DNA from: Spirochaetales bacterium
GTDB lineage: Bacteria; Spirochaetota; Spirochaetia; JAIPGG01
Direction of reading: 5' to 3'
Assembly: GCA_021736255.1 (NCBI GenBank)
Contig: JAIPGG010000003.1
Span: 7,792-71,791 of the forward strand
DNA: 64,000 nucleotides
The notes beneath the pieces were generated by a model. That model ran no database searches and was not told the DNA's origin. It saw nothing but the letters and a program-made list of their open reading frames with translations. Positions within the stretch are counted from its first letter, which is position 1, and every line of letters starts with the position of its first letter. The position numbers were made by a program, and so were the translations under genes. Shown here one piece after another: positions 4,398-60,902 of the stretch.

Positions 4398-4421
4398 TAA
4401 TGTTTCTTTGAAAAAAACGGC

Positions 4422-8548: not shown

Positions 8549-8609
8549 TATTCTTTCCCTTCACTATTTATGGTACGCAATTCCGGAGAATCTGTCGATA
8601 GAAGTCTGC

Positions 8610-9920: not shown

Positions 9921-10606
9921 GCTTCGTGCAGCCGTCCATGTTCAAGGACAAAGCTTTTGTCTCCGCGGGATGCTATTGCCGTATCATGGGTAACCAGAAT
10001 CATGGCTGCCCCGTGTTTTTTCACAATGGAGAACAACATGCCTTCCACCATCCTCGAATTGTGCTCATCAAGATTGCCGGTCGGTTCATCTGCCAGGATT
10101 ATCCTCGGGTTATTTATCAGAGCCCGGGCCACGGCAACCCGTTGTCTTTCCCCGCCGGAAAGCTGGATAGGATAGTGATCGGCTCTCTCGAGCAGTCCGA
10201 CTTCTTCCAGCAGACTGTCACTCTGGCACTCGGCTTCTGCGCGCTCCATTCCTCGGATACGCGCCGGAAGATAAAGATTCTCCCTGGCGGTAAAATCCTT
10301 GAGTAGATAGTGGAATTGAAAAACAAAGCCGACAACATCCCTCCGAAAAGCCGTGAGTTCATATTCACTCAAGGTATCGATTCGCTGTCCATCGACCTCC
10401 AGCTCTCCGGAATCGCTGTGATCGAGCCCGCCGATAATGTGAAGGAGGGTGCTCTTTCCGCTTCCACTCTCTCCCATGATGGAGGCGCAGGTACTGCTTT
10501 CCAATTCAAAATCAAGATCCTCGAGAACCCGCAGGTTCTCTGCAGAGGTTCGATACTGTTTGTTCAAACCGGAAACCCGGATCAAGGTATCAGCCATAAA
10601 TTTCAC
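9917..10606 (-). CDS. lolD: ABC transporter ATP-binding protein (LolD-like)
   Basis: Walker A GESGSGKST, signature LSGGERQR and Walker B ILADEPTGNLD. It is flanked by two FtsX-type permease genes. Confidence 0.85.
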   Translation of the reverse strand: MKFMADTLIRVSGLNKQYRTSAENLRVLEDLDFELESSTCASIMGESGSGKSTLLHIIGGLDHSDSGELEVDGQRIDTLSEYELTAFRRDVVGFVFQFHYLLKDFTARENLYLPARIRGMERAEAECQSDSLLEEVGLLERADHYPIQLSGGERQRVAVARALINNPRIILADEPTGNLDEHNSRMVEGMLFSIVKKHGAAMILVTHDTAIASRGDKSFVLEHGRLHEA

Positions 10607-17249: not shown

Positions 17250-17331
17250 ACCGCTAGTGTACCGAGTCGGGCTGTGGCTTGTCAAACAGAAACGAAAATA
17301 CTACTGTTTCTTTTGGAAGGGGTCGCCGATT

Positions 17332-20676: not shown

Positions 20677-21513
20677 CTATGATTTTGCTTCTACGACGGC
20701 CTTTTCCTCGACCGGTACCAGAGGGATGATACATTTAGCCGGACATGCTTCGGCTGCTTCCTTTCGGCTTCCGGTCTTGGAGAAGTCGATGCGGGCCAGA
20801 TTATTTTCGACGGTAAAGCCCCCCTCCGGCGATTTCTTCTCACATATTTTACACCCTATGCAGCCAACTTTACAGTATTTTCTTGTAACGGCCGCCTTGT
20901 CCGTGGAATTACAGGCAACGATATAATCTGCTGAATAGGGGATCATTTTCATTACCCCCGTAGGGCATATATCCACACATTTTCGGCAGGATATACAGAG
21001 ATCCCGGTCTACGGTCACCAGACCCTCATCGTCATAGTAGATAGCGTCGGTCGGACATACCTTCATGCAGCTGCCCAGCCCCAGACATCCGAATTTACAG
21101 ACCTTGTTTCCCTCATAGAAGATGTGCAGTGCATTGCAGTCCTCAATACCCTCGTAGTCAAAGGCATATGCGCTTGTTGCGGCATTTCCCCGGCAATGGA
21201 CCTGGGCTACCATCTTTTCCGATGTGGTATCGACTGTTTTCCCCATGATATCCGCGATCGTCTTGAGAGCATCCGCCCCCCCGGGTCCGCACAGGTCCAG
21301 CGGAGCATCTTCTTTTACAATCGCTTCGGCATAGGATGCGCAGCCGGCATAACCGCAGGCACCGCAATTCAGTCCAGGAAGAGCCTCCTCGACCTCGGCT
21401 ACCCGTTCATCTTTTTTTACCGCCAGAATCCGCGAAGCTATCGCCAGCCCCAGGCCGAGCACGCCCCCCAGGGCTGCAACCGAAATAAATGCATAGAGTA
21501 CCGTGGTTCCCAT
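20677..21513 (-). CDS. rnfB: Rnf electron transport complex subunit B
   Basis: N-terminal TM helix, the CGACGYAGC motif and several CxxCxxCxxxCP ferredoxin motifs. It is the last gene of the rnfCDGEAB order. Confidence 0.85.
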   Translation of the reverse strand: MGTTVLYAFISVAALGGVLGLGLAIASRILAVKKDERVAEVEEALPGLNCGACGYAGCASYAEAIVKEDAPLDLCGPGGADALKTIADIMGKTVDTTSEKMVAQVHCRGNAATSAYAFDYEGIEDCNALHIFYEGNKVCKFGCLGLGSCMKVCPTDAIYYDDEGLVTVDRDLCISCRKCVDICPTGVMKMIPYSADYIVACNSTDKAAVTRKYCKVGCIGCKICEKKSPEGGFTVENNLARIDFSKTGSRKEAAEACPAKCIIPLVPVEEKAVVEAKS

Positions 21514-21522
21514 CTTCGTCCC

Positions 21523-22113
21523 CTAACCTACGAGATTATTCAAAAGTGCTTTGTCGAAGGCCATAAAGGCCAGAGCCATGAGGCCGCCGGTAATAAAGGC
21601 AATCGGCGTACCCCGCAGCGGTTTTGGAACCCATTCCCGGTCCATCCGCTCCCTGATCGTCGACATCAGGACAATAGCCAGAAGGAAACCAAGTCCGGCG
21701 GCTATTCCGGCAACAAAGCTCTCGAGGGCACTGTACTCACTGCGGACGGCAATGAGTGCGATACCGAGGACCGCACAGTTCGTTGTTATCAGCGGCAGAT
21801 AGATGCCAAGAGATTTGTACAGAGGGGGAGATGTCTTCTGTATAACCATTTCCACCAGCTGAACCAGGGTAGCAATAACCAGGATGAAGGTAATTGTCTG
21901 CAGAAAAGTGATGTCCAAAGGAGCGAGAATAAAGTTGTAGATTGCCCAGGTGGTAAGGGCGGCAATCGACATAACAAAGGTAACGGCAAATCCCATACCG
22001 ATCGCCGAATCAACATTCTTCGAGACTCCGATAAAGGGACAGAGGCCGAGAAATTGACTGAGAATGAAATTGTTTACGAACACAAACATGATAATGATGC
22101 CGATATATGTCAT
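21523..22113 (-). CDS. rnfA: Rnf electron transport complex subunit A
   Basis: 196-aa polytopic protein with FVNNFILSQFLGLCPFIGVS. Confidence 0.9.
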   Translation of the reverse strand: MTYIGIIIMFVFVNNFILSQFLGLCPFIGVSKNVDSAIGMGFAVTFVMSIAALTTWAIYNFILAPLDITFLQTITFILVIATLVQLVEMVIQKTSPPLYKSLGIYLPLITTNCAVLGIALIAVRSEYSALESFVAGIAAGLGFLLAIVLMSTIRERMDREWVPKPLRGTPIAFITGGLMALAFMAFDKALLNNLVG

Positions 22114-22742
22114 GCCCGGACCCCCTTTCTGCGCATTTCCAGCCAGTTGAAAAAGGCTTTCAGATATCCCATCACCAGCAGAGCGCCTGCCGCCAAGGCA
22201 AGAACCATCACCGGCGCATCCACGAGACCGGGTATCCGGATGACCCCGTCGAAGCTGCCCATGGGAAAGATGGTTATGGTACCGGCCCCGAAGACCTCAC
22301 GGACCAGCGCGATAAGCACCAGGCCCAGCGTGAATCCGATCCCCATTCCCAGGGCATCCAGTATGGACCGACCGATATTATTTCTGTTCGCAAAGGCCTC
22401 CGCCCTCCCGAGAATGGCGCAATTGACAACGATCAATTTGACGAAAACGCCGAGACTGTCCGAAAGAGTCGGGAGATAGGCCTGAAGAACAAGATCTACA
22501 ATCGTTACGAAGGAGGCGATTATCACGATATATGAGGGAATACGCACCTTCTCCGGAATAAAGTTCTTTAAAAGGGAGACAAAAATATTCGAGCCCAACA
22601 GTACAAAGATTACTCCGGCCCCCATTCCCAGGGCATTTACGACCTGATTCGACACGGCCAATGCCGGACACAGTCCGAGTAAAATTACGAATATCGGGTT
22701 TTCCTTGAACAGGCCTTTCGAGAAATCCTGAAACGCCGTCAT
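22110..22742 (-). CDS. rnfE: Rnf electron transport complex subunit E
   Basis: 210-aa polytopic protein with NPIFVILLGLCPALAVS. It has a 4-nt overlap with rnfA. Confidence 0.9.
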   Translation of the reverse strand: MTAFQDFSKGLFKENPIFVILLGLCPALAVSNQVVNALGMGAGVIFVLLGSNIFVSLLKNFIPEKVRIPSYIVIIASFVTIVDLVLQAYLPTLSDSLGVFVKLIVVNCAILGRAEAFANRNNIGRSILDALGMGIGFTLGLVLIALVREVFGAGTITIFPMGSFDGVIRIPGLVDAPVMVLALAAGALLVMGYLKAFFNWLEMRRKGVRA

Positions 22743-23296
22743 GGCAGCTGCTCCTTCACATACTCCGACCCCTCGGATAGGGCGGTTCCAATTCCCCGAA
22801 AGGTAATGGTCGCGCCGGTTACCGCATCGGCCTCCTCCCGGGACAGATCGTCTTTACGGAAAGGTACCGGAGTATCAACACCGGTACCGATATACTTCTC
22901 CATGTACTCGGGATTCTCGGCCTTCTTCCCCAAACCAGGTGTCTCTTCGTTCTCCATGAGAACAACCGACTCCACCCTCCCATTGGGAGAAAAGGCGGCA
23001 AGCAGTTTCATTTCTCCGCCGTATCCGATACTCAGCAGGTCCAGTATGTAGGCATGCGGTTCGCCCTTTTCATCCGAAACGGGATAAAACCCCTGCACAA
23101 CCGGATGCTGTTCGACAACCTGTTTGTCACCGATGGTCCCGGATTCAACAAGCGAAGAGAGGGCTTCCTGGAGTTCCCGAGCCTTGCGTTCCTTGATCAC
23201 CGGCGCGGTAACCGAGTTTACCGCGCCGAGAGCCAGGGCCGCCGCAGCGGCAATGACGGCGAGCCTGAGGGCGATTCCTGCGATACCGAGCTTCAT
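22739..23296 (-). CDS. rnfG: Rnf electron transport complex subunit G (FMN-binding)
   Basis: N-terminal TM helix and the FMN_bind signature DAVTGATITFRG. Confidence 0.85.
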   Translation of the reverse strand: MKLGIAGIALRLAVIAAAAALALGAVNSVTAPVIKERKARELQEALSSLVESGTIGDKQVVEQHPVVQGFYPVSDEKGEPHAYILDLLSIGYGGEMKLLAAFSPNGRVESVVLMENEETPGLGKKAENPEYMEKYIGTGVDTPVPFRKDDLSREEADAVTGATITFRGIGTALSEGSEYVKEQLP

Positions 23297-24384
23297 GATG
23301 CCGCCTCCTTCCCCTTCTGTTCGAGGGTCCCGAACCGTACCGGCTTGACCGCCCGGTTGATCATCGGAACAAAGACATTCATCACAATAATGGCAAGAGA
23401 AACGCCTTCCGGGAAGGAACCGAAAAACCGTATCATAAATGTCAGAAAACCGGCGCCCAATCCGAAGATAATCATCCCCTTCGGCGTCAGGGGGCTGGTC
23501 ACCATATCGGTAGCCATAAAAAGAACGCCGAGCATCAAACCGCCCGAGAGCAGATGAAACAGAACATCACCGCTGAACAGACCCAGCCCGAAACGGGTTC
23601 CACCGAATACCCACACCAGCAGAGCGAAGCTCCCGAAGTAAGTCAGCGGTATCTCCCAGGTAATGACCTTGCGGAGAAAAAGATATGCCGCTCCGATAAT
23701 CAGGAGCAGGGCGGAAACCTCTCCAATACAGCCTGGGACCCTGCCGAAAAAGAGATCAGCATAAGAGACATCCAACGGCATGAGTCCGTCCCTGGAAATA
23801 AACTCCAGGGGCCCGCTCACCGTTCCGCTGAAATCAAAGAGTCCGGACTGCACCGCGCCGAGCACGGTTGGACCGGTAACCGAATCGACTCCCTGGGCCG
23901 ACCAGGCCATGGGAAGTTTCCATCTGGTCATTGCTCCGGTCCAGGAGAAAAAGACAAAAACCCGGCCTGCAAGCGCAGGGTTCATCCAATTCGAGCCGAG
24001 GCCTCCGAAAGACCACTTGACCACGGCGATTGCAAAGGCCGAAGCAACAATCGGGATATAAAGGGGAACCGAAGGGGGCATATTGAACCCGATCAACAAT
24101 CCGGTCAAAAAGGCACTGCCGTCGGTAACGGTGGACGGTTTCGTCCCAAGAGTGAGCAGCCACTCAACGCCCACCGCAGAGACAATACTGAGGACCAATG
24201 TCAACAGGGCGGGAATACCAAAGATATAGACACCCCAGACCGCCGCAGGAATCAGGGCAATAATGACATCGATCATGATTCGTGTCGTTTTACTGCGGTC
24301 ATGTATCTGTGGAGAACTGGATACTATCAGATTCTGCGCTGCCGGTTTTTGCGCCGTTTTTTCAGCTGTTTCCGTGGTACTCAT
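23293..24384 (-). CDS. rnfD: Rnf electron transport complex subunit D
   Basis: Polytopic NqrB/RnfD-like protein. The ATG at 24384 (MSTTETAEK) forms an ATGA overlap with the rnfC stop. The longer ORF-track start would overlap rnfC by 100 nt. Confidence 0.85.
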   Translation of the reverse strand: MSTTETAEKTAQKPAAQNLIVSSSPQIHDRSKTTRIMIDVIIALIPAAVWGVYIFGIPALLTLVLSIVSAVGVEWLLTLGTKPSTVTDGSAFLTGLLIGFNMPPSVPLYIPIVASAFAIAVVKWSFGGLGSNWMNPALAGRVFVFFSWTGAMTRWKLPMAWSAQGVDSVTGPTVLGAVQSGLFDFSGTVSGPLEFISRDGLMPLDVSYADLFFGRVPGCIGEVSALLLIIGAAYLFLRKVITWEIPLTYFGSFALLVWVFGGTRFGLGLFSGDVLFHLLSGGLMLGVLFMATDMVTSPLTPKGMIIFGLGAGFLTFMIRFFGSFPEGVSLAIIVMNVFVPMINRAVKPVRFGTLEQKGKEAAS

Positions 24385-25703
24385 GATGCTTCCTTCCGAC
24401 GCCGTGCAAGACGTTTGCCCAGTTTCATCCCCTGTACAAGAGGGATGTGAGCGGGGCAGACAAAACCGCAGCTCCCGCACTCCCTGCAGTCGTTGAGTCC
24501 CTCCTCGAGGGCGGCGTCAATATCGTTGTGGTCGACACACTTGTATAACAATGTCGGGCTGAGGCCGACAGGACATACTCGTATACAGCGGCCGCAGCGA
24601 ATGCATGAGGTCGTCTGCGTTTCCCGGATCTCTTTTGCCGTCAGTGCCAGTAACCCGGAGGTTCCCTTTATTACCGGGGTGGTCTCAGGGTCAAAAACGG
24701 TGAAACCCGTCATCGGTCCACCGGCTACGATCTTTACGGTATTCCCGCTGGTTCCTCCGGCCTCTTCGATAAGATGAGAAAAGGGGGTTCCTATGGGGGC
24801 AAGGTAATTTCCCGGATTTTCAATACCGTTTCCACTCACGGTAACAACGCGATGAGTAAGGGGCTTTGAAAGCTCAACAGCCTCGTATATTGCATTGAGT
24901 GTACCGACATTTGATACCACGGTTCCCACGGCAATGGGCAGGCCGCCGGAGGGAACTTCCCTGCCGGTGATCGCCTGGATGACCATTTTTTCATCACCCT
25001 GGGGATAACGGAGTTTGAGAGGTACGACCTCAATAGGAATGGAGGCACCGGCGGCGGCAGCGCTCATTGCCTCTATCGCGTCGGGTTTGTTGTTCTCGAT
25101 GGCTATATAGACATGATCCGGCCCGAGGATTTCGGCGGCAATTTCAATGCCTTTGACAATTTCACTGCTTTTTTCGAGCATTAAGCGATGATCGGCGGTA
25201 AGATAAGGTTCGCATTCAACCCCGTTTGCTATAAAAAACTCAGCCTTCGATCCCTTTGGAATGGAATATTTGACGTGGGTGGGAAAGGTTGCTCCCCCCA
25301 TTCCGACAATTCCCATAGCCGCTATTCGGTCGATAAGTTCTTTTGCGTCGGTCGAACTCGGGTTCAAGGCAGCCTCTTCCCCTTCGGGAGCAGCAGGTAG
25401 TAATTCGACGGCCTGAGTTTTTGCACCGTTCGGGAGATATATCGACCGCATTTCTCCAATCGTCCCTCCGACCGGCGCATGAATGGGGGATGAAACAAAG
25501 CCACCGGCCTCCGCCAGAATATCACCAGCGGCTACTTCCGCTTCCTTTTCAACCTTTAGCGTCGGCGGTGCACCAATATGCTGCTGGAGGGGAATTATGA
25601 GTTTTTCGGGGAGCCGCAGACTTTGAATTGCTTCGGAACTGGCGAGTTCCTTTCTATCGTGCGGATGAACCCCTCCCTTTGCAAATGTTTTTAATCCTTT
25701 CAT
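24381..25703 (-). CDS. rnfC: Rnf electron transport complex subunit C
   Basis: NADH/FMN-binding GMGGATFPTH and two 4Fe-4S motifs, CIRCGRCIRVCP and CRECGSCGFVCP. Confidence 0.9.
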   Translation of the reverse strand: MKGLKTFAKGGVHPHDRKELASSEAIQSLRLPEKLIIPLQQHIGAPPTLKVEKEAEVAAGDILAEAGGFVSSPIHAPVGGTIGEMRSIYLPNGAKTQAVELLPAAPEGEEAALNPSSTDAKELIDRIAAMGIVGMGGATFPTHVKYSIPKGSKAEFFIANGVECEPYLTADHRLMLEKSSEIVKGIEIAAEILGPDHVYIAIENNKPDAIEAMSAAAAGASIPIEVVPLKLRYPQGDEKMVIQAITGREVPSGGLPIAVGTVVSNVGTLNAIYEAVELSKPLTHRVVTVSGNGIENPGNYLAPIGTPFSHLIEEAGGTSGNTVKIVAGGPMTGFTVFDPETTPVIKGTSGLLALTAKEIRETQTTSCIRCGRCIRVCPVGLSPTLLYKCVDHNDIDAALEEGLNDCRECGSCGFVCPAHIPLVQGMKLGKRLARRRKEAS

Positions 25704-27241
25704 GCTTCCTGCCGTTTTCTCCTGTATGAATATTGCACTTTCATCAACCTGATTCCCGAAATCTGAATATACTCGAGCATCATCGGGGAAAACATCAGAA
25801 GGCAGATCAATAAATCTAAAAAAATCCTTCCCGAACCCACAGATATAGCCCGCAGCTCGACACGAACCAAGCCATCCTGAGCAGTCAGGAGATGAACAAT
25901 GCTTTCTTCCGATACTTCACGCATAATACCAGCAAACCAGGAATCCGTAAATGCCAGGACGGGAATTTTCATCTCCCGGGTAACCCCGTTTTCAGTTTTA
26001 TAACCCGGGATATGTACTACGGTTCCTTCTTCCGGAACAGCAAAAGGAATACGGTAAGGAAACCCTTCCTGATATGCACGATGGGCGGTATAGTCTGCTA
26101 GATTCGGCAGAAAAACGTTCTTTCCTTTCTCTGTTTCGAGCTTTCTGAACCTTTCCATTTCCTGAAGTCCCTGGGGACTGACCATACTGCGAAATGCAAC
26201 CGGTTGAGGAAAGGGTTGCGAAAAACTGCCCGCCAAACGTTGAACCCCTCCATGGAGAAGGACGACAAAAAGAACGATTCCCATTACCAACGGAAACCTG
26301 ACTGCCTGTTTCTGCCGCCGGGCGGAGAATATCGAAACTGGAACGAACCTCCGGTGAACCCAACCGCGGCTTCTCCAGAGCTTCAAAGCTGCGGGAAATA
26401 CCGCCCCGGCAATCGAGCCTGCAATGGGAATAAGGTACGCGGCAGCGAGCGGCGGCCCGGCGTTTCGCAGGAAAAAGCTCAACGCCGGCAGAAGAGCAGC
26501 AACAAGAAACACTGCCGCAAACCTGCGATCCGAATTATCCGACAAGAGAGGGAGGCGGTAGTGAAGAAACTGCTCAAACCGAGTTTGCCGGCTGTAGACC
26601 ACCAGAGCAACAAGCACATAGCCTCCCAGGTAAACACCCGGCGGAATAGCAGGCAGGAAAAAAACAGCTGCAAACCAGGGAAGAGAAGCAAAAACCAGAG
26701 AAAACCGGGCTTTTCCCGACAGGAAGATGAAAACCGCCACCAGGGCAGCCAAAAAAATGAGCTTGCCCCAGCGCAGAAAACCTGCCGAATCCGGAAGCCG
26801 CCAACTGTCTTTCATAGGTCCAAGGCTTCGTCTTAAATCGACCCATAAAGAAGAGATTGAACGGTCATGTGGAAGGTAATAGAGACGAAAGTCCTGTTTC
26901 TCTATCTGTACATGAAACAAGGAACCGAGATTTCGCAGATATGGATCAAAACGAGGGTCGAAGGATTCGAGACGGCTGCCGAGCTCGGTAAAAGGGATTT
27001 CCTTCGTACCGTTGAAACTGCTGATTCTAACGGATTGGCTTTGCTCAGAGATCACCCCCGTCAGACCGATTTCCGCCAGAGCATCCGTTACCCGTTGGTG
27101 GGAAAGCTCTTTTTGGACTGCTAGTGGTGTATACCCTTTCCAACCGCTTGCCCCGGTTTCTTCAGCTGAGAAATCGAAAGGTAAGACCACAGAAAGAAGG
27201 AGTATAGACAGACTTGCCAGACTCAGCAGAGCGACGCGCAT
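25700..27241 (-). CDS. polytopic membrane protein of unknown function
   Basis: Signal-like start MRVALLSLASLSILLL (ATG at 27241), a central block of about 6 TM helices and two soluble domains. Its stop forms an ATGA overlap with the rnfC start. I recognised no family. Confidence 0.5.
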   Translation of the reverse strand: MRVALLSLASLSILLLSVVLPFDFSAEETGASGWKGYTPLAVQKELSHQRVTDALAEIGLTGVISEQSQSVRISSFNGTKEIPFTELGSRLESFDPRFDPYLRNLGSLFHVQIEKQDFRLYYLPHDRSISSLWVDLRRSLGPMKDSWRLPDSAGFLRWGKLIFLAALVAVFIFLSGKARFSLVFASLPWFAAVFFLPAIPPGVYLGGYVLVALVVYSRQTRFEQFLHYRLPLLSDNSDRRFAAVFLVAALLPALSFFLRNAGPPLAAAYLIPIAGSIAGAVFPAALKLWRSRGWVHRRFVPVSIFSARRQKQAVRFPLVMGIVLFVVLLHGGVQRLAGSFSQPFPQPVAFRSMVSPQGLQEMERFRKLETEKGKNVFLPNLADYTAHRAYQEGFPYRIPFAVPEEGTVVHIPGYKTENGVTREMKIPVLAFTDSWFAGIMREVSEESIVHLLTAQDGLVRVELRAISVGSGRIFLDLLICLLMFSPMMLEYIQISGIRLMKVQYSYRRKRQEA

Positions 27242-27266
27242 GATCAGAATACACTCACTCAATCCC

Positions 27267-31107: not shown

Positions 31108-32241
31108 TCAACCGCGCCCGGGCCGGCGTTTCCTGCCCTTTTTTCCCCGAGCCCCCATACCTATCTTTCTCTGAACGAAGCCTACGGCATATTCTACTTC
31201 CCGGTTCGGCGGAAGAGACGGCTTGAGTACATTTTTTGCTTCACGAAAAAGTTGATGGAACAACTCATCACTCCTTCCGTAAACTTCGGCCCGTTCTTCG
31301 AGATAATCCCACAGAAGCATTGCGAGCATCTTCCCAGGTCCCATGTTTCCATCCGATTGGATGCGCTCATCGAGAATTTCGAGCCGGCGAAACAATCGAT
31401 CTGCAAAATCGTCCCTTTGGCTCCCGTTTCCCGAAGCGTGAATCATTTCCGCATACCGGGGGAGAAAGTGCTCGAGCAAGTTGAACGAATCCATGGTGCG
31501 GAGAACGGGAGCAGTGTTGCCGGAACGAAGTATCTTGAAGAGCTCTTCAGTGAGTCTGGATGCGGATATATCGGCAAGGAGCGGAGCATCAGAGCGGATC
31601 TTTCTGACCACACGTGGTGGAATCTCGAAACCTGTAAGTTCAGCATACTTGACCGCCCGTATCATCCGTACAGGATCTTCGGAAAATATCCGCTTCAAAG
31701 GGATAACCGGTCGAATTTTTTTCCGTTTTATATCCCGATACCCGCCGACATAATCGATTACAAGTTCGTCTATCGGACAATAATAGAGGGCGTTGATCGT
31801 AAAATCCCGTCTCCGCACATCATCGTCGAGACTGCCGTAGATGGTGTTTTCACTCGTTGAACTCAGAGACCGAAAGGTAGAGACCTCGATTATCTTGTTC
31901 TGAAAATATATGTGGGCGAGTTTGAAACGTTTTCCGATTATTCGGGAATTTCTAAAAAGCTTGCGGATTCTGTTGGGCGTAGCATCCGTCGCAATATCGA
32001 CATCCTTCGGCGCACGACCGGTAAGAAGATCCCGTACCGCTCCGCCGACAATATATGCCCGGTGCCCGTAACGGCGAAGCCGCCGGATTATCTTGATTGC
32101 ATCATAGTCGATGCTTTCCCGGCCGATCCGGTGCTCATCGCTGGTGTAGATTCGAGCCGCTTTTGAAAACTCGTCCTTTGTTGTTGTTGAATACCGTGTC
32201 AGGAGTTTCTCCGGAAACCACTCAGGATTTGACCCTTTTAT
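31108..32241 (-). CDS. pcnB: poly(A) polymerase I-like nucleotidyltransferase (PcnB/CCA family)
   Basis: My manual translation shows the frame is open from 32244. The head domain YIVGGAVRDLLTGRAPKDVDIATDATPNRIRKLFRN..RFKLAHIYF is followed by RRDFTINALYY and a basic tail KKGRKRRPGRG. There is no in-frame ATG/GTG/TTG upstream of the head domain, so the start is uncertain. Confidence 0.75.
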   Translation of the reverse strand: MKGSNPEWFPEKLLTRYSTTTKDEFSKAARIYTSDEHRIGRESIDYDAIKIIRRLRRYGHRAYIVGGAVRDLLTGRAPKDVDIATDATPNRIRKLFRNSRIIGKRFKLAHIYFQNKIIEVSTFRSLSSTSENTIYGSLDDDVRRRDFTINALYYCPIDELVIDYVGGYRDIKRKKIRPVIPLKRIFSEDPVRMIRAVKYAELTGFEIPPRVVRKIRSDAPLLADISASRLTEELFKILRSGNTAPVLRTMDSFNLLEHFLPRYAEMIHASGNGSQRDDFADRLFRRLEILDERIQSDGNMGPGKMLAMLLWDYLEERAEVYGRSDELFHQLFREAKNVLKPSLPPNREVEYAVGFVQRKIGMGARGKKGRKRRPGRG

Positions 32242-32969
32242 ACATCAAGGAGAAAGCCCACGTCAACCGACATGCCCTTTTCCCCGCAATCCCTGCGGCA
32301 GACCTCGATACCTCGGTCTCCGCTGCAATGCGCCGGGCCCAGCCGTTGAACTCCCATCTCCATGAGGAGCCGGTATTCTTCGGCTATTTCTCTGTCTTCC
32401 TTGTTCTTGTAATGGAATCCACCGAGTACTGAATCAATCCGGAGCTCAGGAAAGGCGGCGGAACACTCGCGAACAACCTTCACCACCCCCGGATGCGCGC
32501 AACCGGTAACCACATTCAGCTGCTGCCTGTCTGCTCTCTCAGATGATACGAGAGCAATAGCCTGTTCCTGTATAGGGCCGCCCTGGTACTCGCCCTCTAT
32601 CGGACCGATGGTAAAAACCCCGGGAGCTATTTCGGTACGCCCGGAAACAACGCGGAGGTTCCCGCCATACTCTTTTACATCCTGATGAAAGGAATCACGA
32701 AACCCGTCACAGATATATACAGGCAGTCCCCGACGTTTTTCGAGCAGCTTCCAAAGCCCTCCCCGGTGGTCCCAATGATCGTGGGAGATTACAACCATTT
32801 GTATTTCGTTATAATCGTACCCAAGGCTCCGAAGATTTGACAGCAGCTTATCTCCGTCCTCTCCCGTGTCAAAGAGGACGGTTTTCCCTATCATAGCTGA
32901 AAAACCCCAGCCGTAGTGCAGTGTGGTCCCCGTTCCTCGATTGTCATATACTACCTGTACTTTCATCAT
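32238..32969 (-). CDS. MBL-fold metallo-hydrolase (COG1237-like)
   Basis: VVYDNRG..GFSAMIGKTVLFDTG.. and VVISHDHWDHRGG (HxHxDH). Confidence 0.8.
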   Translation of the reverse strand: MMKVQVVYDNRGTGTTLHYGWGFSAMIGKTVLFDTGEDGDKLLSNLRSLGYDYNEIQMVVISHDHWDHRGGLWKLLEKRRGLPVYICDGFRDSFHQDVKEYGGNLRVVSGRTEIAPGVFTIGPIEGEYQGGPIQEQAIALVSSERADRQQLNVVTGCAHPGVVKVVRECSAAFPELRIDSVLGGFHYKNKEDREIAEEYRLLMEMGVQRLGPAHCSGDRGIEVCRRDCGEKGMSVDVGFLLDV

Positions 32970-32989
32970 CGATCACCCTTGGGAGGACA

Positions 32990-33805
32990 TCACCCCTCCA
33001 TCTTCTTCGAAAGCTCCTCAATAATCTCCATGTACCGTTTTGCTGCGGGAGCCTCGGGCGAGGCCTGAATATATGCCCTTCCCCCGTCACCGGAGACAAC
33101 CATATTCGGATCGAGCGGGATATTCCCGAGATACGAGACATCCATTTCGGAAGCCGCCTTTTCGCCGCCGCCCTTGCTGAATATATCGACCTCTTCTCCG
33201 CAATGGGGACAGATGAAACCGCTCATATTCTCTATCACTCCGAGGACAGGAACATTGAGCTTTTTCGCAAAGTTGATTGTCTTGCGGGAATCGAGTACGG
33301 AGACTTCCTGTGGAGTCGTTACAATCACCGCACCGTCGATATCGGGAATAACCTGCCCGACCGTGAGTGGTTCATCCCCGGTTCCCGGCGGAGAGTCGAT
33401 AACCAGATAATCCAGATCCCCCCAATTCACATCGGCAAGGAACTGTTTGATTACACCGATCTTCAGCGGGCCCCGCCAGATCAATGCATCATCCCGGCCG
33501 TAACCGGCCAGTGCAATACTAGCCACTTTGAGATTGGGAAGGACCTCTACCGGATCGATTCTATTTTCTGAACCGGTGAACGTCCTGTCATCTATCCCGA
33601 GCATCTTTGGGACATTCGGTCCATGAATATCGACATCCACTATTCCGACCTGTTTATCGTTCATAGCTAGTCCGTAGGCGAGATTCACCGCAACTGTAGA
33701 TTTTCCGACCCCTCCCTTACCGCTGAGCACCATGATCTTGTGTTTTATATGACTCATAGCCTCTTTGAGCCTTTCGTCCTGCTGTTCGCGTTCTTCGTTC
33801 TTCAT
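32990..33805 (-). CDS. Mrp/NBP35/ApbC family Fe-S cluster carrier ATPase
   Basis: Deviant Walker A SGKGGVGKSTVAVNLA and the CPHC motif (GFICPHCGEEVDIF). Confidence 0.85.
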   Translation of the reverse strand: MKNEEREQQDERLKEAMSHIKHKIMVLSGKGGVGKSTVAVNLAYGLAMNDKQVGIVDVDIHGPNVPKMLGIDDRTFTGSENRIDPVEVLPNLKVASIALAGYGRDDALIWRGPLKIGVIKQFLADVNWGDLDYLVIDSPPGTGDEPLTVGQVIPDIDGAVIVTTPQEVSVLDSRKTINFAKKLNVPVLGVIENMSGFICPHCGEEVDIFSKGGGEKAASEMDVSYLGNIPLDPNMVVSGDGGRAYIQASPEAPAAKRYMEIIEELSKKMEG

Positions 33806-34737
33806 TATCTCTCTTGCTCCTTCGTATTGATGTTATTAGCCGGCGTATCAGCCCCGACTCTTTCTTCGAATAAGAAGTCTTGTATGGTCTCCCAAACAGA
33901 AAGGATGGCGCGACTCACCTCGTCTTCCGCGTATTTTATATAGGGAACTCCCTGTCGAATTGCCTCCCCTACGTTTCTCGAAAAAGGGATCTTTCCCGCC
34001 ATGTCGAATCCCAGCTTGCCTGCCAGGGCCTCGATCTCTGAGGCCGTTTCCGGATTCAAGTCGTGCTTGTTTATCACTACTCCGGCGCGTATACGAAACT
34101 GCTTGATTACCTCGGCCACCCGGTTAAGATCGTGATAGCCGGAGGGAGTAGGTTCGGTTATAACGATAACATAATCGAGTTCGGCAAGGGCGGAAAGTAC
34201 CGGGCAACCTATTCCCGGCGGTCCATCGACCAGGATCCAGTCTTTATTCTTTTCTACGGCCAGTGATTTCGCCTCGTTTTTTACCTTGGTCACCAGCTTG
34301 CCCGAGTTATCCTCGCCGGGAATAAGCCGGGCATGGAGCATGGGTCCATAACTGCTCTCGGACCGGAACCACTGTCCTGCAGTTTTCCGCTGCATGGAAA
34401 CAGCATTCTCCGGGCACACAAGAGAACAGGTTCGACAGCCCTCGCAGGCATAACTGTCGACTATGGCAACCGATTCCTCGTTCATCGACAAAGCGTCGAA
34501 ACGGCAGACATCGAGACACTCACGGCAGCCGGTACAGAGAACAGGATCGATCACCGCTTCTTCTCCACCGGCAAAATCCTCGGCAGTTGTTACTTTCGGT
34601 TGTAAAAGCAGATGAAGGTCCGATGCGTCCACATCACAATCTGCGAACACCGCATTCTCGGCCAGGGTCGCAAGGGAAGCGGTCAAGACTGTTTTTCCTG
34701 TTCCGCCTTTTCCGCTTATTATGCCGACCTGTTTCAT
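33805..34737 (-). CDS. MinD/ParA-type P-loop ATPase with inserted 2x[4Fe-4S] ferredoxin domain (COG1149-like)
   Basis: SGKGGTGKT plus CTGCRECLDVC and CEGCRTCSLVCP. It has an ATGA overlap with the upstream paralog and a TAATG overlap with mrp. Confidence 0.8.
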   Translation of the reverse strand: MKQVGIISGKGGTGKTVLTASLATLAENAVFADCDVDASDLHLLLQPKVTTAEDFAGGEEAVIDPVLCTGCRECLDVCRFDALSMNEESVAIVDSYACEGCRTCSLVCPENAVSMQRKTAGQWFRSESSYGPMLHARLIPGEDNSGKLVTKVKNEAKSLAVEKNKDWILVDGPPGIGCPVLSALAELDYVIVITEPTPSGYHDLNRVAEVIKQFRIRAGVVINKHDLNPETASEIEALAGKLGFDMAGKIPFSRNVGEAIRQGVPYIKYAEDEVSRAILSVWETIQDFLFEERVGADTPANNINTKEQER

Positions 34738-35621
34738 GAGATCCCCCCTCGCTGTCCGGGCGCGGCGATGCGTTTGTTTATATCGTGAAAAACATCGAGG
34801 AACAGCTTTCTGTACTCGGGAAGGGCCTCGACAACAGGCTCGCCGCGGGAATATGCTCTTGCTACATCCTCAGAATAGGGTAAAGCCCCGATCACATCGA
34901 TGTTCCTCTGTTCGCACCAGGGACGGACCTGCTGATTTTCTTCCTCTTCCCGATTGATAAAAACACTAAAGGGAACTTCGAGGTCCCGAACAACATCTAC
35001 GGCAAGTTCCAGATCATGCAGACCGAAGGGGCTGTCCTCGGTGACAAGCAGTGCATAGTCGCTCTTTCGTATTGCAGCAACCATGGAGCATGAGGTGCCC
35101 GGAGGGGCATCGAGTATCGATATCTCCTCCGAGTTGATCTCGTCCTTCAATCCCCTGACGATGGGAGGCGCCAGGGCTTCACCTGTATTCAGTCGTCCCT
35201 CGGTAAAGGCGAGATTGCCGCTCCTGCCGCGATTGATACGCCCGATAGGTCTGGGTTCTTCGAACAGGGCATCCTCCGGACACGCGATCAGGCAGGCCCC
35301 GCAGCTGTGACACATCTTGTCGAAAACCAGCAATTGATCTTTCAACAGGGCAAGTGCCCCATAGGCACAGGTTTTCACGCAGATTCCGCAGGAGGTGCAC
35401 TTGTCCTCTTTTACCCTGGGAACGAGCATGTTGTGGTCCGTCTGGTCGGTATACTCCGGATTCAAAAAGAGCGCTGAATTCGGTTCCTCCACATCCACGT
35501 CGATAAGCCGGACATTCACCGTCTTGTCATCTTTCGCCTGGTCAGCCACCGCCAAGGCAAGACTGGTTGCAATCGTGGTCTTGCCGGTGCCACCTTTTCC
35601 ACTCGCGATACTTATTGTCAT
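34734..35621 (-). CDS. MinD/ParA-type P-loop ATPase with inserted 2x[4Fe-4S] ferredoxin domain (COG1149-like)
   Basis: The ATG at 35621 gives MTISIASGKGGTGKTT. Ferredoxin motifs are CTSCGICVKTC and CHSCGACLIACP. Confidence 0.8.
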   Translation of the reverse strand: MTISIASGKGGTGKTTIATSLALAVADQAKDDKTVNVRLIDVDVEEPNSALFLNPEYTDQTDHNMLVPRVKEDKCTSCGICVKTCAYGALALLKDQLLVFDKMCHSCGACLIACPEDALFEEPRPIGRINRGRSGNLAFTEGRLNTGEALAPPIVRGLKDEINSEEISILDAPPGTSCSMVAAIRKSDYALLVTEDSPFGLHDLELAVDVVRDLEVPFSVFINREEEENQQVRPWCEQRNIDVIGALPYSEDVARAYSRGEPVVEALPEYRKLFLDVFHDINKRIAAPGQRGGIS

Positions 35622-35631
35622 GGAAAAACTC

Positions 35632-35952
35632 TCAAAGACTGTTGTTTCGGTAGGCTTCGATGAGCTCTCGTACCGTACCACCGTCGTGGGTCTTCATCTC
35701 GATACCGGCAGTATTCAGGACATTTTCGGCATTCGGGCCGAACTTATGAGAGATGACTACCTCCGCTCCTTTATCTATGACAAATTGCCCGGCTTTCACT
35801 CCCACTCCGCCTGCATCTTCCGTGTTCGGATTGCGAACAAATTCCGTTTCTTCCGTTTCGGTGTTATAGAATACAAAGTACGCGCATCTGCCGAAACGGG
35901 GATCAGCCTGTGCATCTATGGATTCTTCCTGGCTGGTGATACAGATAATCAT
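35632..35952 (-). CDS. NifX/NifB-C-terminal-like cofactor-binding domain protein (COG1433-like)
   Basis: 106 aa with the DPRFGRCAYFVFYN signature. It has an ATGA overlap with the upstream paralog. Confidence 0.75.
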   Translation of the reverse strand: MIICITSQEESIDAQADPRFGRCAYFVFYNTETEETEFVRNPNTEDAGGVGVKAGQFVIDKGAEVVISHKFGPNAENVLNTAGIEMKTHDGGTVRELIEAYRNNSL

Positions 35953-36329
35953 TCATCTTCTCCTTCGCTGCAATTCGTGTGTTGATGATCATGGTGGTCA
36001 TGGTGCTCGCAGGGGCTGCCGTCTGCTTCGAGGGTCCCCTTTATGAATTCATTGATCACATCCTCGACAGGCCCGCTTACCCCGAGAGCCTGTTTGATCC
36101 CGTAATTATTAAGCAGATCCCGGGCCCGTACTCCCATGCCTGAGGCAAGAATCCAATCAGCTCCGAGCTTGTGAAGAAATTCAGGGATTCTGCCCGGTGC
36201 ATGACCGGGGCTCTCGAAGTATTGCCGAGAGGTGACCGTTCCATCTTCGATGTCCACGATCGTATAGGTACCGCAGCGGCCGAAATGGGCCGCTACGGCG
36301 TTGTTTTCGGTGGGAATTGCTATTCTCAC
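35949..36329 (-). CDS. NifX/NifB-C-terminal-like cofactor-binding domain protein with His-rich tail
   Basis: 126 aa with AAHFGRCGTYTIVD and the C-terminal tail CEHHDHHDHQHTNC. Its GTG start overlaps the DUF5320 stop (GTGA). Confidence 0.75.
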   Translation of the reverse strand: MRIAIPTENNAVAAHFGRCGTYTIVDIEDGTVTSRQYFESPGHAPGRIPEFLHKLGADWILASGMGVRARDLLNNYGIKQALGVSGPVEDVINEFIKGTLEADGSPCEHHDHHDHQHTNCSEGEDE

Positions 36330-36715
36330 TTCGATTCTTCTCCTGATTGTCCGGATTCGAGCTCTCTCAGGCGCTTATTCAGAGCCGCTTGCTCTCTTTC
36401 CAGATATTTGGCCTGCTGCCTGAGATATTCGGCTTCATCTTCCGGTGAAGGAGCTGCCTCCGAATAGGGTACTCCCCCGTAAGGAGCTCCATACATGCCG
36501 GGCCCGGCATATCCGGGACCAGGCGCGCCCCAGCCGCGTCTCCAAGCGTTTCCACGGCCAAATCCGGCGCCGCCCCAGCCGCGACCCCAGCCGCGGCCCA
36601 TTCTCGGGGCCGACCAATTCATGAAACCGGGAGCGTCGTAACCGGCACAAAATCCGAGTCCACGACCACTCATAGGTCCGTAACCAACAGGTCCTGTTCT
36701 ATCTCCTCGTGGCAT
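36326..36715 (-). CDS. DUF5320-like protein (Gly/Arg/Trp-rich N-terminal half, coiled-coil C-terminus)
   Basis: N-terminus MPRGDRTGPVGYGPMSGRGLGFCAGY, an RMGRGWGRGWGGAGFGRGNAWRRGWG tract and a C-terminal heptad-like AEYLRQQAKYLEREQAALNKRLRELE. The SD AAGGAGG is 7 nt upstream. Confidence 0.65.
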   Translation of the reverse strand: MPRGDRTGPVGYGPMSGRGLGFCAGYDAPGFMNWSAPRMGRGWGRGWGGAGFGRGNAWRRGWGAPGPGYAGPGMYGAPYGGVPYSEAAPSPEDEAEYLRQQAKYLEREQAALNKRLRELESGQSGEESK

Positions 36716-36753
36716 AATACACCTCCTTAATGGTGATTGTATAGTAGTGTTCC

Positions 36754-37293
36754 CTAATTTTCTTCTTGGGAACGTTTTTCCTCATTTCTCCGGCGGCAAT
36801 CCACACAGAGTCCGTAGTATTCCACAACACGCCGCCGTAGTTGAAAACCGTATTCAGTTTCAAGAGAGCGGGTAACATCATCCATGCTTCCGGATGCTGC
36901 CTGATCTTCGACTGCTTCCTGGTCGCAGGGTTCCACCTTCATGCAATTCGTACAAATAAGCCGGCAACTGCTGCCCTCCTCGGCACCTGTTCGAAGACGA
37001 AAGCGGGCCTTGCCGTCTCCCATGTCGAACCGTTCTACCAACCCCATCTGAGCCAGGAGCGTCAGCGTCCGATAGACCGAAGTCAACCCGACTGCCGGGT
37101 ACTGTTCGTGGAGCTGGAAGAATATCTCCTCCGCCGACCGATAACGATCGTCCGCGCTGAGAACCTCGAGGACCGCTTGTCGGGGTACAGTCATGCGATA
37201 GCCCCGGCGCTTGAACTGGCCGTGCCATCCCCTTCCATGTCCCCATCCTCTTCCTTTTCCTGGTCCTGGTCCTCTTCCCGGTCCCGGTGTCAT
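36754..37293 (-). CDS. Fur-family transcriptional regulator with Gly/Arg/Trp-rich N-terminal extension
   Basis: Fur-like winged helix (RQAVLEVL..SAEEIFFQL..VGLTSVYRTLTLLAQMGLV) and two CxxC pairs (CTNC, CVDC). It carries a 33-aa extension, MTPGPGRGPGPGKGRGWGHGRGWHG. It is the first gene of the operon. Confidence 0.8.
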   Translation of the reverse strand: MTPGPGRGPGPGKGRGWGHGRGWHGQFKRRGYRMTVPRQAVLEVLSADDRYRSAEEIFFQLHEQYPAVGLTSVYRTLTLLAQMGLVERFDMGDGKARFRLRTGAEEGSSCRLICTNCMKVEPCDQEAVEDQAASGSMDDVTRSLETEYGFQLRRRVVEYYGLCVDCRRRNEEKRSQEEN

Positions 37294-37314
37294 TATCCTA
37301 TTTCAGCTCCCTTA

Positions 37315-37331
37315 TTGAAAACGATTTTCAA
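37315..37331. promoter_or_regulatory. palindromic operator 1, TTGAAAA-CGA-TTTTCAA (Fur-box-like)
   Basis: Read directly. The 7-3-7 inverted repeat sits immediately downstream of the predicted -10 of the fur-like operon and 22 nt upstream of its ATG. Confidence 0.55.
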
Positions 37332-37335
37332 TTTC

Positions 37336-37364
37336 AATATATACCTGCAGAATTGATTCGTCAA
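37336..37364 (-). promoter_or_regulatory. sigma70-type promoter of the fur-like operon (TTGACG-17 nt-TATATT)
   Basis: Minus-strand reading: TTGACG at 37364-37359, a 17-nt spacer and TATATT at 37341-37336. It is bracketed by the two palindromes. Confidence 0.5.
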
Positions 37365-37370
37365 GGGTTA

Positions 37371-37387
37371 TTGAAAATAATTTTCAA
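37371..37387. promoter_or_regulatory. palindromic operator 2, TTGAAAAT-A-ATTTTCAA (Fur-box-like)
   Basis: Read directly. This is a perfect 8-1-8 inverted repeat just upstream of the -35 of the fur-like operon and 50 nt upstream of the hisS ATG. Confidence 0.55.
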
Positions 37388-37436
37388 TTCGCGTATCCTT
37401 GCTGTAATCAACCGCAGTGTATCCGAGAGGTGTACA

Positions 37437-38777
37437 ATGAAACGAATAGAACCACGCGTACTCAAGGGATTCCGGGATTTTCTTCCGGAAAATCAGCGCA
37501 GGCGTATCGACTTGCAGAAGCAGCTCGAAAAGACCTTCCGTTCCTACGGATTCGTCCCGATAGACACACCGGTTCTCGAGTATACCGAGGTTCTTCTGGG
37601 CAAGGGAGGCGGGGATACGGATAAACAGATCTACCGGTTTCAGGACAATGGAGGCCGGGATGTTTCAATGCGTTTCGACCTGACCGTACCCTTTGCTCGA
37701 TATATGGCCGCTCACCGATCGGAACTCTACCTCCCCTTTCGCAGATACCACATCGACAAGGTCTGGCGGGGAGAAAATACACAGCGCGGCCGTTACCGAG
37801 AGTTTGCACAGTGCGATTTTGATATTGTGGGGCCGGACAGCGGCGAGGCGGATCTCGAAATACTTCTTTTGATGCGGGATGCGCTTGCTTCAATCGGCAT
37901 CGAAAACATCAGCATCAGGGTCGCTCACCGGGGTTTGTTCAACCGATTTCTCAGCCGGCTCGGGGTCGAAGACAAGTCGGTCGAGATACTCCGGCTCGTG
38001 GACAAGGTTCACAAAATCGGCAGGGAAGAACTCTCTACACAATTGACCGAACTCGTGGACTCGGAAAAGGCCTCGGCAATCATCTCGTATATCAGCCCGC
38101 AGGAAACCGGGCTGAAGAAACCCGCTTCCTCCTCCGAAAACTTTTCCGTAATCGACATGCTCGAAGAATCAGCGGGGGGCCAGGACGAAGACAGCAGCCG
38201 GCTTCGCTATCTCTTCGAACAACTCGAGGCATCGGGGAATGGGGCGGCCTTCCGGATCGATCCGTCGATCACCAGAGGGCTCGATTACTACACTGGTGTA
38301 GTCTTTGAAACCTTTCTCGAGGATCTGCCTTCTCTCGGTTCCGTCTGTTCAGGCGGACGCTACAACGATTTAGCAGGACTCTACACAAAGGAATCACTGC
38401 CGGGAGTAGGATCTTCTATCGGGCTGGACAGGCTCATAGCCGGAATGGAAGAACTCGGAATAAGCGGCAGCAAAACCGCTGTGTGCGAGGTGCTCATCCT
38501 CAACTTCTCCCCCTCTCTATCCGGCGCCTATCACCGGCTCGCCCGAGCCCTGAGAAATGCCGGAATCAGTTGTGAAATCTTTCCGGAGGCAAAAAAACTC
38601 GGAGCTCAGTTCCAATACGCGGAGAAAAAGGGTATCCCTTATGCCCTGATCATGGGAGAGGAAGAACACAAACGGGGAACTGTGAATCTAAAGAATATTA
38701 CAACCAGAGAAAACGAAGACGACCTTACTCCCTCGGACGCCGCAGAAAGGCTTCGCAGGTATCTCTCACACCCCTGA
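37437..38777 (+). CDS. hisS: histidine--tRNA ligase
   Basis: The ATG at 37437 (SD GAGAGG) gives MKRIEPRVLKGFRDFLP. Class II motifs include RYHIDKVWRGENTQRGRYREFAQCDFD and GGRYNDL. Confidence 0.9.
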   Translation: MKRIEPRVLKGFRDFLPENQRRRIDLQKQLEKTFRSYGFVPIDTPVLEYTEVLLGKGGGDTDKQIYRFQDNGGRDVSMRFDLTVPFARYMAAHRSELYLPFRRYHIDKVWRGENTQRGRYREFAQCDFDIVGPDSGEADLEILLLMRDALASIGIENISIRVAHRGLFNRFLSRLGVEDKSVEILRLVDKVHKIGREELSTQLTELVDSEKASAIISYISPQETGLKKPASSSENFSVIDMLEESAGGQDEDSSRLRYLFEQLEASGNGAAFRIDPSITRGLDYYTGVVFETFLEDLPSLGSVCSGGRYNDLAGLYTKESLPGVGSSIGLDRLIAGMEELGISGSKTAVCEVLILNFSPSLSGAYHRLARALRNAGISCEIFPEAKKLGAQFQYAEKKGIPYALIMGEEEHKRGTVNLKNITTRENEDDLTPSDAAERLRRYLSHP

Positions 38778-60878: not shown

Positions 60879-60902
60879 TTGAAACATTCATGGGAGGCCA
60901 CG

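Follow-up and report, generated by a model that had tools for sequence, protein, structure and literature searches.

A probable orange protein complex cluster of the Spirochaetales, predicted to be under the control of a Fur-family repressor

The orange protein (ORP) complex of Desulfovibrio is the closest described counterpart of an eight-gene cluster that we analysed in a 64,000-nucleotide stretch of DNA (the 64-kb window) from a Spirochaetales metagenome-assembled genome. In Desulfovibrio, the proteins Orp3, Orp4, Orp5, Orp8 and Orp9 form a physical complex that has been pulled down; Orp3 and Orp4 are MinD-type ATPases with two [4Fe-4S] motifs each, Orp9 is MrpORP, and Fe-S clusters pass in vitro from MrpORP to Orp3/Orp4 (PMC6345978). 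The orange protein itself, Orp8, holds a non-covalent Mo-Cu-S cluster, [S2MoS2CuS2MoS2]3- (cited in PMC6345978). The orp genes lie in two divergent sigma-54 operons, which OrpR, an Fe-S redox sensor, activates with the aid of IHF (PMC8359166), and a role in cell division, the hypothesis first put forward for the complex, is not established (PMC3897727, PMC4672049). A further point of comparison is IssA of Pyrococcus furiosus, in which a NifX-type globular domain carries a Pro-rich, cationic, aromatic and Gly-rich disordered tail, for which binding of anionic thioferrate has been proposed; Gly-rich tails are also mentioned for a mesophilic clade, 'IssX', that is uncharacterised (PMC5524996).

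The original prediction for this DNA had treated the eight genes as an uncharacterised system, in a combination to which no role had been given. That part of it cannot stand, since the gene set matches the described Desulfovibrio ORP cluster (PMC6345978, PMC8359166, PMC3897727). We consider the locus likely to be an ORP-type cluster of the Spirochaetales, in a Fur-regulated variant. It is not a new system but a variant of a known and widespread cluster, the physiological function of which is unsettled.

Four kinds of protein carry this assignment, all of them encoded on the minus strand. The shorter of two NifX-like proteins (35632-35952; 106 aa; Nitro_FeMo-Co, 77.8 bits) is a single-domain protein of the orange-protein type, matching the D. 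gigas ORP structure 2WFB (E=3.8e-12) and TM1290 (E=9.4e-16), and would be the Orp8 counterpart. Two paralogous MinD-type ATPases, paralogue 1 (34734-35621; 295 aa) and paralogue 2 (33805-34737; 310 aa), both matching the Pfam CbiA and Fer4 families, each have an inserted 2x[4Fe-4S] ferredoxin domain with two CxxCxxCxxxC motifs, and may be taken as the counterparts of Orp3 and Orp4. Their genes adjoin and overlap and their products are 28% identical to each other; because the paralogues are fused in some genomes, the pair probably forms a heterodimer. The Mrp/NBP35-type Fe-S carrier ATPase (32990-33805; 271 aa; ParA/NUBPL, 325.9 bits), with its CPHC motif, corresponds to the P-loop half of MrpORP, matching model positions 1-251 of the NCBIfam MrpORP family (NF041136) at 370.1 bits, compared with 234.7 bits for the ApbC model. 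The longer NifX-like protein (35949-36329; 126 aa; Nitro_FeMo-Co, 65.7 bits) matches positions 265-365 of the same MrpORP model, the Di-Nase domain, at 88.8 bits. Both halves are thus present, as separate genes rather than fused, and together they would make up a split MrpORP (Orp9).

The 126-aa protein, whose relatives in the PDB are TM1816 and PH0822, also has recognisable Di-Nase motifs. The published motifs are CxHFGHCE, TPPPHxPGxxP and CDH (PMC6345978); here we find AAHFGRCG, SPGHAPGRIP and a terminal CEH, the last within a His-rich acidic C-terminal tail, SPCEHHDHHDH, so that the shared forms are HFGxC, PxHxPGxxP and C[DE]H. With the clusters of D. vulgaris Hildenborough and D. alaskensis G20 the locus therefore shares a single-domain orange-protein homologue, two paralogous MinD-type ATPases with two [4Fe-4S] motifs each, an MrpORP-type Mrp/NBP35 carrier, a Di-Nase domain with these motifs, a dedicated cis-encoded regulator, and restriction to anaerobes. 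It differs in being one unidirectional operon rather than two divergent ones, in the splitting of MrpORP into two non-adjacent genes, in an Mrp protein that lacks N-terminal cysteines, and in the addition of a metallo-beta-lactamase (MBL)-fold hydrolase. The most marked contrast is in regulation, where a sigma-70-like promoter, a Fur-family repressor and Fur-type palindromes stand in place of sigma-54, IHF and OrpR; no enhancer-binding protein is found.

Could the NifX-like genes and ATPases instead be remnants or accessories of nitrogenase(-like) cofactor maturation, of the NifX/NafY/NifH kind? The Pfam name of the carrier domain, 'dinitrogenase iron-molybdenum cofactor', invites this explanation, as do weak Fer4_NifH matches of the ATPases, but these NifH-family scores are 16-24 bits, below the cut-off of 25. 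No nifHDK, nifEN or nifB is found among the large open reading frames (ORFs) of the 64-kb window, and the absence of nif, isc and suf genes, claimed earlier for the operon, extends to all of those large ORFs. The cluster is also widespread in lineages sampled irrespective of diazotrophy, and the NifX, NafY and NifB clades are separate from many other IPR003731 proteins (PMC5524996). A nitrogenase-related origin is thus highly improbable. The NifX, NafY and NifB C-terminal domains do belong to the same fold family (PF02579), binding complex metal-sulfur clusters non-covalently or by few ligands; the window proteins differ from them in having no nif context and in being short single-domain forms, with ORP, TM1290 and TM1816 as relatives.

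The organisation of the eight genes, from 37293 down to 32238, was reproduced exactly, as to ORFs, coordinates and order. The same applies to the junctions, with 4-nt overlaps at 36326-36329, 35949-35952 and 34734-34737, and a 1-nt TAATG overlap at 33803-33807; the other neighbours are 38, 10 and 20 nt apart, in agreement with the earlier figure of 10-38 nt. Every motif quoted earlier is present in the translations (SGKGGTGKT twice, SGKGGVGKS once, HFGRC, RFGRC, MPRGDRTGP and HDHWDH), and in the profile search that had been called for, all eight products pass the Pfam gathering (curated) thresholds used here for family calls. An independent gene caller yields the identical eight genes on a Logan contig from the same organism; it agrees with the ATG start of ATPase paralogue 1 at 35621, upstream of which a GTG at 35681 is likewise open. 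The co-directional overlaps and short gaps bear out the prediction of one tightly coupled operon, and we think it likely, jointly with the ORP assignment, that a single transcription unit, driven by a sigma-70-type promoter, takes in all eight genes.

The candidate promoter for the fur-like gene and operon, TTGACG-17-TATATT (37336..37364, minus strand), matches 10 of 12 consensus positions. It is flanked by a pair of 19-bp palindromes, both a perfect fit to the pattern ATTGAAAAnnnTTTTCAAT, in a layout typical of a repressor. The distal operator, ATTGAAAATAATTTTCAAT (37370..37388; 0 mismatches, weight matrix 26.5 bits), lies upstream of both the -35 hexamer, by 6 nt, and the start of the divergent hisS gene, by 49 nt, and the proximal operator, ATTGAAAACGATTTTCAAT (37314..37332; 0 mismatches, 28.5 bits), covers the predicted transcription start. 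With up to 3 mismatches allowed, the pattern occurs at only three sites in the window, against a chance expectation of 0.35, and none of 100 shuffled windows gave 3 matches. The third, weak site, GTTGAAAACCGTATTCAGT (36840..36858; 3 mismatches, 13.3 bits), is within the 3' end of the fur-like gene, ∼125 nt before the DUF5320 start, and is of uncertain function. The same promoter/operator geometry is seen in L002, one of two unrelated metagenome contigs (L002/L003) in which a Fur homologue 44% identical to that of the window heads a similar operon: L002 has TTGACT-17-TATAAT at the equivalent position, and its site at the position of the proximal operator is identical to the window's at 16 of 19 positions.

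Other modes of control were considered and set aside. A loose sigma-54 pattern is uninformative, with 339 matches against ∼385 expected, and a targeted check of 36700-37450 found no -24/-12 element. As to riboswitch or other RNA control, the window contains no Rfam family and no tRNA. On the divergent side, where hisS starts at 37437, plus-strand promoter-like matches at 37353-37381 and 37371-37399 overlap the distal operator, and the repressor might therefore affect hisS transcription too.

The putative repressor, product of the first gene (36754-37293, minus strand; 179 aa; Pfam FUR, 83.7 bits), has the winged-helix DNA-binding and dimerisation domains of the Fur family (best PDB match 9IRE, E=4.7e-20). 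C114/C117 and C163/C166, the two CxxC pairs of the structural Zn site, are invariant in the alignment and kept in the window protein. The regulatory ligands are replaced. Alignment with cluster-linked relatives and E. coli Fur (8J6W) shows Y in place of the His of HLSAE, R in place of the Glu of RYEL, SSCR in place of HHHH, and R in place of the His of NHxIQF. The nine relatives from Fur-headed clusters with recognisable boxes retain H, E, HHHH and H, and the divergent, box-less Furs of L020 and L046 have EHQH. The closest further relative, among 5.8 billion proteins, is 44-47% identical.

These substitutions bear directly on the earlier description of the system as metal-responsive, which becomes doubtful for this copy. 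Canonical metal sensing is unlikely. DNA binding, on the other hand, is likely to be retained, since the residues of the recognition helix are conserved and two perfect operators are present. What does stand is that a Fur-family gene with its own operators heads the operon, as predicted; boxes are likewise present in nine of the ten other Fur-headed clusters.

The N-terminus of this protein is also unusual. G31-Y32-R33, preceding Met34, are invariant in homologues, so that the long reading frame must be real and the 146-aa NCBI call too short. In the window copy alone this end is lengthened, by about 17-20 residues rich in Gly, Arg and Trp. Part of the extension, GPGPGKGRGWGHGRGW, is encoded by an imperfect 24-nt tandem direct repeat (37228-37275, 71% identity), which suggests that it arose by local duplication. 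We discarded the idea that a long N-terminus is a hallmark of the family, the conserved GYRMT being the normal first helix (the GLKVT region in E. coli), and also a homology between the extension and the DUF5320 repeat region, for which BLASTP gave E=0.62; the likeness is compositional only.

Fur is known to control Fe-S assembly operons, for example suf in E. coli. The arrangement in the window resembles classical Fur/PerR/Zur operons in the winged-helix fold and structural Cys4 site of its regulator and in the 19-bp AT-rich palindrome (7-1-7 core) over the promoter, with predicted autoregulation, and related clusters carry near-consensus TGATAAT-N-ATTATCA boxes. It departs from them in that the regulator is the first gene of the operon it would control, has an N-terminal extension and lacks the regulatory His/Glu. 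Its half-site is also different, TGAAAAT and not TGATAAT, so that the box reads TGAAAAT-N-ATTTTCA in the window as against the TGATAAT-N-ATTATCA of most relatives.

How general is this gene set? The homologues of ATPase paralogue 2 number at least 8000 at a cut-off of E<=1e-10. One ATPase was used to scan one genome per species, giving 425 confirmed loci, of which the best 80 were analysed; these come from a wide range of anaerobic bacterial and archaeal phyla. The window's eight proteins were searched against the ORFs of the 80 loci, and the 43 loci with enough flanking DNA were treated as complete. The frequencies can only be indicative, the 80 loci having been selected for their resemblance to a single ATPase. 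An ATPase pair or fused pair is present in all 43 complete loci (43/43) and a NifX-like gene in 39, with two or more NifX-like genes in 27; DUF5320 modules are found in 25, Mrp in 18 and MBL in 13. A Fur-family gene is at the head in 7 of the 43, and in 10/80 of all loci. The gene-neighbourhood check proposed earlier thus shows a core that recurs almost universally across 80 loci from diverse anaerobes.

Individual loci illustrate the variation around this core. All eight families are present in L010 (Aminicenantales) and seven of the eight in L047 (Atribacteria). In another Spirochaetales metagenome-assembled genome, L057, the order is Fur-DUF5320-NifX-NifX-(PLP enzyme)-MBL-fused ATPases. The pyridoxal phosphate (PLP) enzyme, of the Cys/Met-metabolism type (4109-5257), lies between the NifX genes and MBL, and a radical-SAM gene (7901-8860; CxxxCxxC) comes after the fused ATPases; both were assigned by eye from the translations. 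In the L002/L003 operon an IscU-type NifU_N gene takes the place of Mrp and MBL. Mrp and Di-Nase are seen among the loci in both split and fused forms. Tandem NifX proteins of ∼237 aa occur in L009 (7156-7869), L010 (4546-5259) and L015 (6180-6899), made up of a Di-Nase-like part, a His/Cys-rich linker and an ORP-like part, with Mrp coming directly after them.

The composition of these operons is relevant to the proposal that the MinD-like ATPases, with Mrp, position the septum or some other cellular structure, the clusters serving only as redox sensors. The deviant Walker A motif of the ATPases is indeed that of the MinD/ParA class. Septum positioning has been proposed for ORP and loss of OrpR linked to division (PMC3897727, PMC4672049, PMC4641369), and MrpORP is found at the cell pole, with MinD-like C-terminal amphipathic helices reported for Orp3/Orp4 (PMC6345978). 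The published evidence for division is, however, indirect, and no ftsZ, minE or divIVA is seen in the cluster or window. The steadiest partners of the ATPases are instead NifX carriers, Mrp-type Fe-S carriers, and Fur-type regulators with their boxes, and related operons contain within them an IscU-type scaffold (L002) or a Cys/Met PLP enzyme and a radical-SAM protein (L057). A spatial or cell-division role seems to us unlikely for this cluster.

We therefore turn back to the Fur-regulated ORP cluster, and to the regulators that accompany its core elsewhere. In nine of the ten other Fur-headed clusters a palindrome (up to 4 mismatches) precedes the Fur start by ∼35-40 nt, and these sites are conserved across phyla. 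When up to 3 mismatches are allowed, the operator pattern has a background rate of some 4e-5 per position. Four loci (L018, L019, L047 and L057) have a second strong site (20-27 bits by the weight matrix) between fur and the first structural gene, and it is at this fur/DUF5320 junction that the third site of the window, of 13.3 bits, is found. Weaker boxes (17.5-18.9 bits) before ORP-type clusters that have no adjacent Fur gene, at L021 3550 and L049 6048, suggest that Fur acts in trans on such clusters in some genomes. Fur relatives in L004 and L005 are in non-ORP contexts, implying that this Fur clade is not exclusive to ORP clusters; in L005 a Fur-type box of 23.4 bits (9966-9984) precedes the related Fur gene, in a cytochrome/rhodanese context. 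The part of the ORP literature covered here contains no mention of Fur.

Two other types of regulator adjoin the same core. OrpR-like activators, with the PAS C-x8-C-x3-C triad and GAFTDA, are found beside the cluster in L027, L075, L078 and L080, one of these four loci being from a Sphaerochaetaceae spirochaete. In two loci a DUF134 helix-turn-helix (HTH) is fused to a NifX domain; both fusions, L040 8357-9136 and L071 8366-9121, are from Desulfobacterales and lie directly upstream of the ATPase pair. With its HTH resembling sigma-70 region 4, DUF134-NifX looks like a one-component regulator with NifX as its sensor, and thus a third regulator type. The occurrence of Fur, OrpR and DUF134-NifX beside the same core implies that the regulators are interchangeable modules.

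The second gene of the operon (36326-36715, minus strand) encodes a DUF5320 protein (129 aa; Pfam DUF5320, 98.5 bits). Members of this family have an MPRGDGTGP...GxCAG N-terminus, Gly/Arg/aromatic repeats, a Pro/Tyr/Ala-rich stretch and a C-terminal helix of coiled-coil type. The window protein is mostly of low complexity, with an MPRGDRTGP...GFCAG N-terminus, a disordered-type middle and an acidic coiled-coil-type helix at the C-terminus; its residues 35-90 include 18 Gly, 7 Pro, 6 Arg/Lys, 9 aromatic and only 1 acidic residue, and have a pI of 10.9. In a dozen loci an ORP-like NifX domain is fused to a DUF5320-type repeat and coiled-coil module, and in four of these NifX fusions (L045, L046, L059 and L038) DUF5320 scores above the Pfam threshold. 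Triple fusions, in which a 2x[4Fe-4S] ferredoxin is joined to NifX and the DUF5320 repeat/coiled-coil part, occur at L038 7112-7987 and L085 10797-11660. From the fusions and the composition we infer that DUF5320 may be a free-standing IssA-like tail, acting with the NifX carriers on an anionic metal-sulfide cargo.

The parallel with IssA and IssX extends to the IPR003731/Nitro_FeMo-Co domain, present in two window proteins, to the Pro-rich, cationic Gly/aromatic disordered segment, and to the joining of an ORP-like domain and a DUF5320 segment on one polypeptide in other genomes. In the window, however, the tail-like segment is on a separate DUF5320 protein with its own N-terminal motif and coiled coil; the NifX-like proteins themselves have no tail, the 126-aa one ending in an acidic/His-rich sequence; and IssA is not known to need MinD/Fer4 ATPases. 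For the IssA tail thioferrate binding is a proposal, and the window DUF5320 is likened to it by composition alone. In the literature on DUF5320, COG1149, COG1237, 7DCK, TM1679, DVU2107 and Orp7 we found nothing functional.

Another question is whether the cluster handles Mo/W-sulfur or Mo-Cu thiometallate species in place of Fe-S, so as to store or detoxify them or to supply Mo/W enzymes. The suggestion arises because [S2MoS2CuS2MoS2]3- was found on the orange protein, as a non-covalent Mo-Cu-S cluster (cited in PMC6345978), and the 106-aa window protein is ORP-like; NifX domains, too, carry Mo-containing cofactors in nitrogenase maturation (PMC5524996). Any thiometallate anion would be bound by a cationic region such as that of DUF5320. 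In the window, however, there are no Mo/W transport, molybdenum cofactor (Moco) or Cu genes, and no Moco riboswitch or other Rfam family. The regulators attached to such clusters are either of Fur type, with classical boxes, or the Fe-S redox sensor OrpR. Thiometallate handling in place of Fe-S is thus improbable.

For the ORP-type cluster itself we propose the following working scheme. The Fur-family protein would repress and autoregulate the promoter through the two 19-bp palindromes. Mrp would assemble or carry a [4Fe-4S] cluster on its CxxC bridge and load the two ATPases, which would then spend ATP and low-potential electrons on anionic metal-sulfide species, whether Fe-S, thioferrate-like or thiometallate; the NifX-domain carriers would hold these species non-covalently. 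DUF5320 may help to hold them through its cationic Gly/Arg/aromatic region, its coiled coil oligomerising the assembly, and the MBL hydrolase would be a facultative accessory. Of this scheme, we observe the set of genes and their arrangement as an operon, the operators, the wide conservation of the cluster, the exchange of regulators and the fusion of domains. Complex formation and the transfer of Fe-S from MrpORP to Orp3/Orp4 are taken from the literature. We infer what the ligand or cargo is, what DUF5320 does and what purpose the system serves in the cell. An ATP-dependent handling of Fe-S or other metal clusters, in general terms already part of the original prediction, agrees with the published working model.

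A more specific, and rather doubtful, extension of this scheme is that ORP-type clusters do in bacteria and mesophiles what IssA does, namely store iron and sulfur in mineral form. An anionic polymer or condensate, of thioferrate-like or thiometallate material, would be nucleated by the NifX carriers with DUF5320, the latter supplied in trans here and fused elsewhere. The MinD/Fer4 pair, being redox-active, would act with Mrp to load this material or mobilise it, and control by iron would be direct, through Fur, in many lineages. The Fur of the window, which has lost its metal ligands and gained a similar cationic Gly/Arg/Trp tail, might then respond to what is stored, or to DUF5320, and not to free metal.

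Several points weigh against the assignment and scheme that we favour. The Mrp protein alone falls under the MrpORP equivalog cut-off, at 370 compared with 450 bits, and the case for orthology is built on NCBIfam's model of MrpORP and on the structure of ORP from D. gigas. No Orp5 equivalent was identified in the window cluster, and DUF5320 can be equated with Orp7 only tentatively, from gene order. The window Fur lacks regulatory ligands, and repression, as opposed to activation, is an assumption made by analogy. The likeness of DUF5320 to the IssA tail is one of composition, and is not a demonstrated homology.

The last of the eight genes encodes the MBL-fold metallo-hydrolase (32238-32969, minus strand; 243 aa; Pfam Lactamase_B, 34.4 bits), whose PDB relatives are 7DCK, TM1679 (3H3E) and 2P4Z; it is a facultative accessory of the cluster, of unassigned substrate. 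A possible ninth gene on the same strand, for a PcnB/CCA-type nucleotidyltransferase (31108-32244), is an open frame with the full PolyA_pol head domain (aa 63-178 of the extended frame). The frame is open from 32244, at the MBL stop codon, with no ATG, GTG or TTG before 31818, so that gene callers shorten the product to 236 aa. Translation might begin instead at one of three non-canonical candidates, ATA 32241 (an ATAA overlap with the MBL TAA), CTG 32202 or ATC 32151; the pcnB gene of E. coli starts at AUU. No terminator-like site was found between the MBL and pcnB-like genes, and GC-rich hairpins lie downstream of the pcnB-like stop. The pcnB-like gene may be a ninth, translationally coupled member of the unit.

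Elsewhere in the window, an 843-aa fusion of CoA-disulfide-reductase-like Pyr_redox_2, rhodanese, TusA and DsrE domains (60879-63410, plus strand) has the architecture of a sulfur-trafficking protein, and a related Pyr_redox_2+rhodanese gene lies inside the Fur-headed ORP-type operon of L002 (10594-12315). A complete Rnf-type operon, with its genes in the order RnfC, D, G, E, A, B, lies at 20677-25703 (minus strand). Ahead of it, likewise on the minus strand, is a 520-aa ORF (25700-27262) with no Pfam match; a 454-aa ORF at 17257-18621 also has none. At 4422-8112 (minus strand) a McsB-type ATP:guanido phosphotransferase, similar to protein arginine kinases, is found beside a ClpC-type AAA+ chaperone, a pair best known from Firmicutes.

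The ORP complex is conserved in very many anaerobic bacteria and archaea and, fifteen years after its description, has no agreed function. What is added here is Fur-type control with conserved boxes, a degenerate sensor in this copy, and the link between DUF5320 and the IssA tail. Fur-type control with classical boxes in many lineages ties the cluster to iron economy, beyond redox state or cell division, and DUF5320, as a detachable IssA-like cationic tail, suggests that the cargo may be an anionic metal-sulfide species. A third lead is the swapping of Fur, OrpR and DUF134-NifX on a constant core; all three are testable. If the storage proposal is true, it would give the anaerobe-specific ORP complex a function, as an ATP-driven Fe-S store. 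Current views are not overturned by these observations, which instead narrow the hypotheses for a widespread orphan system.

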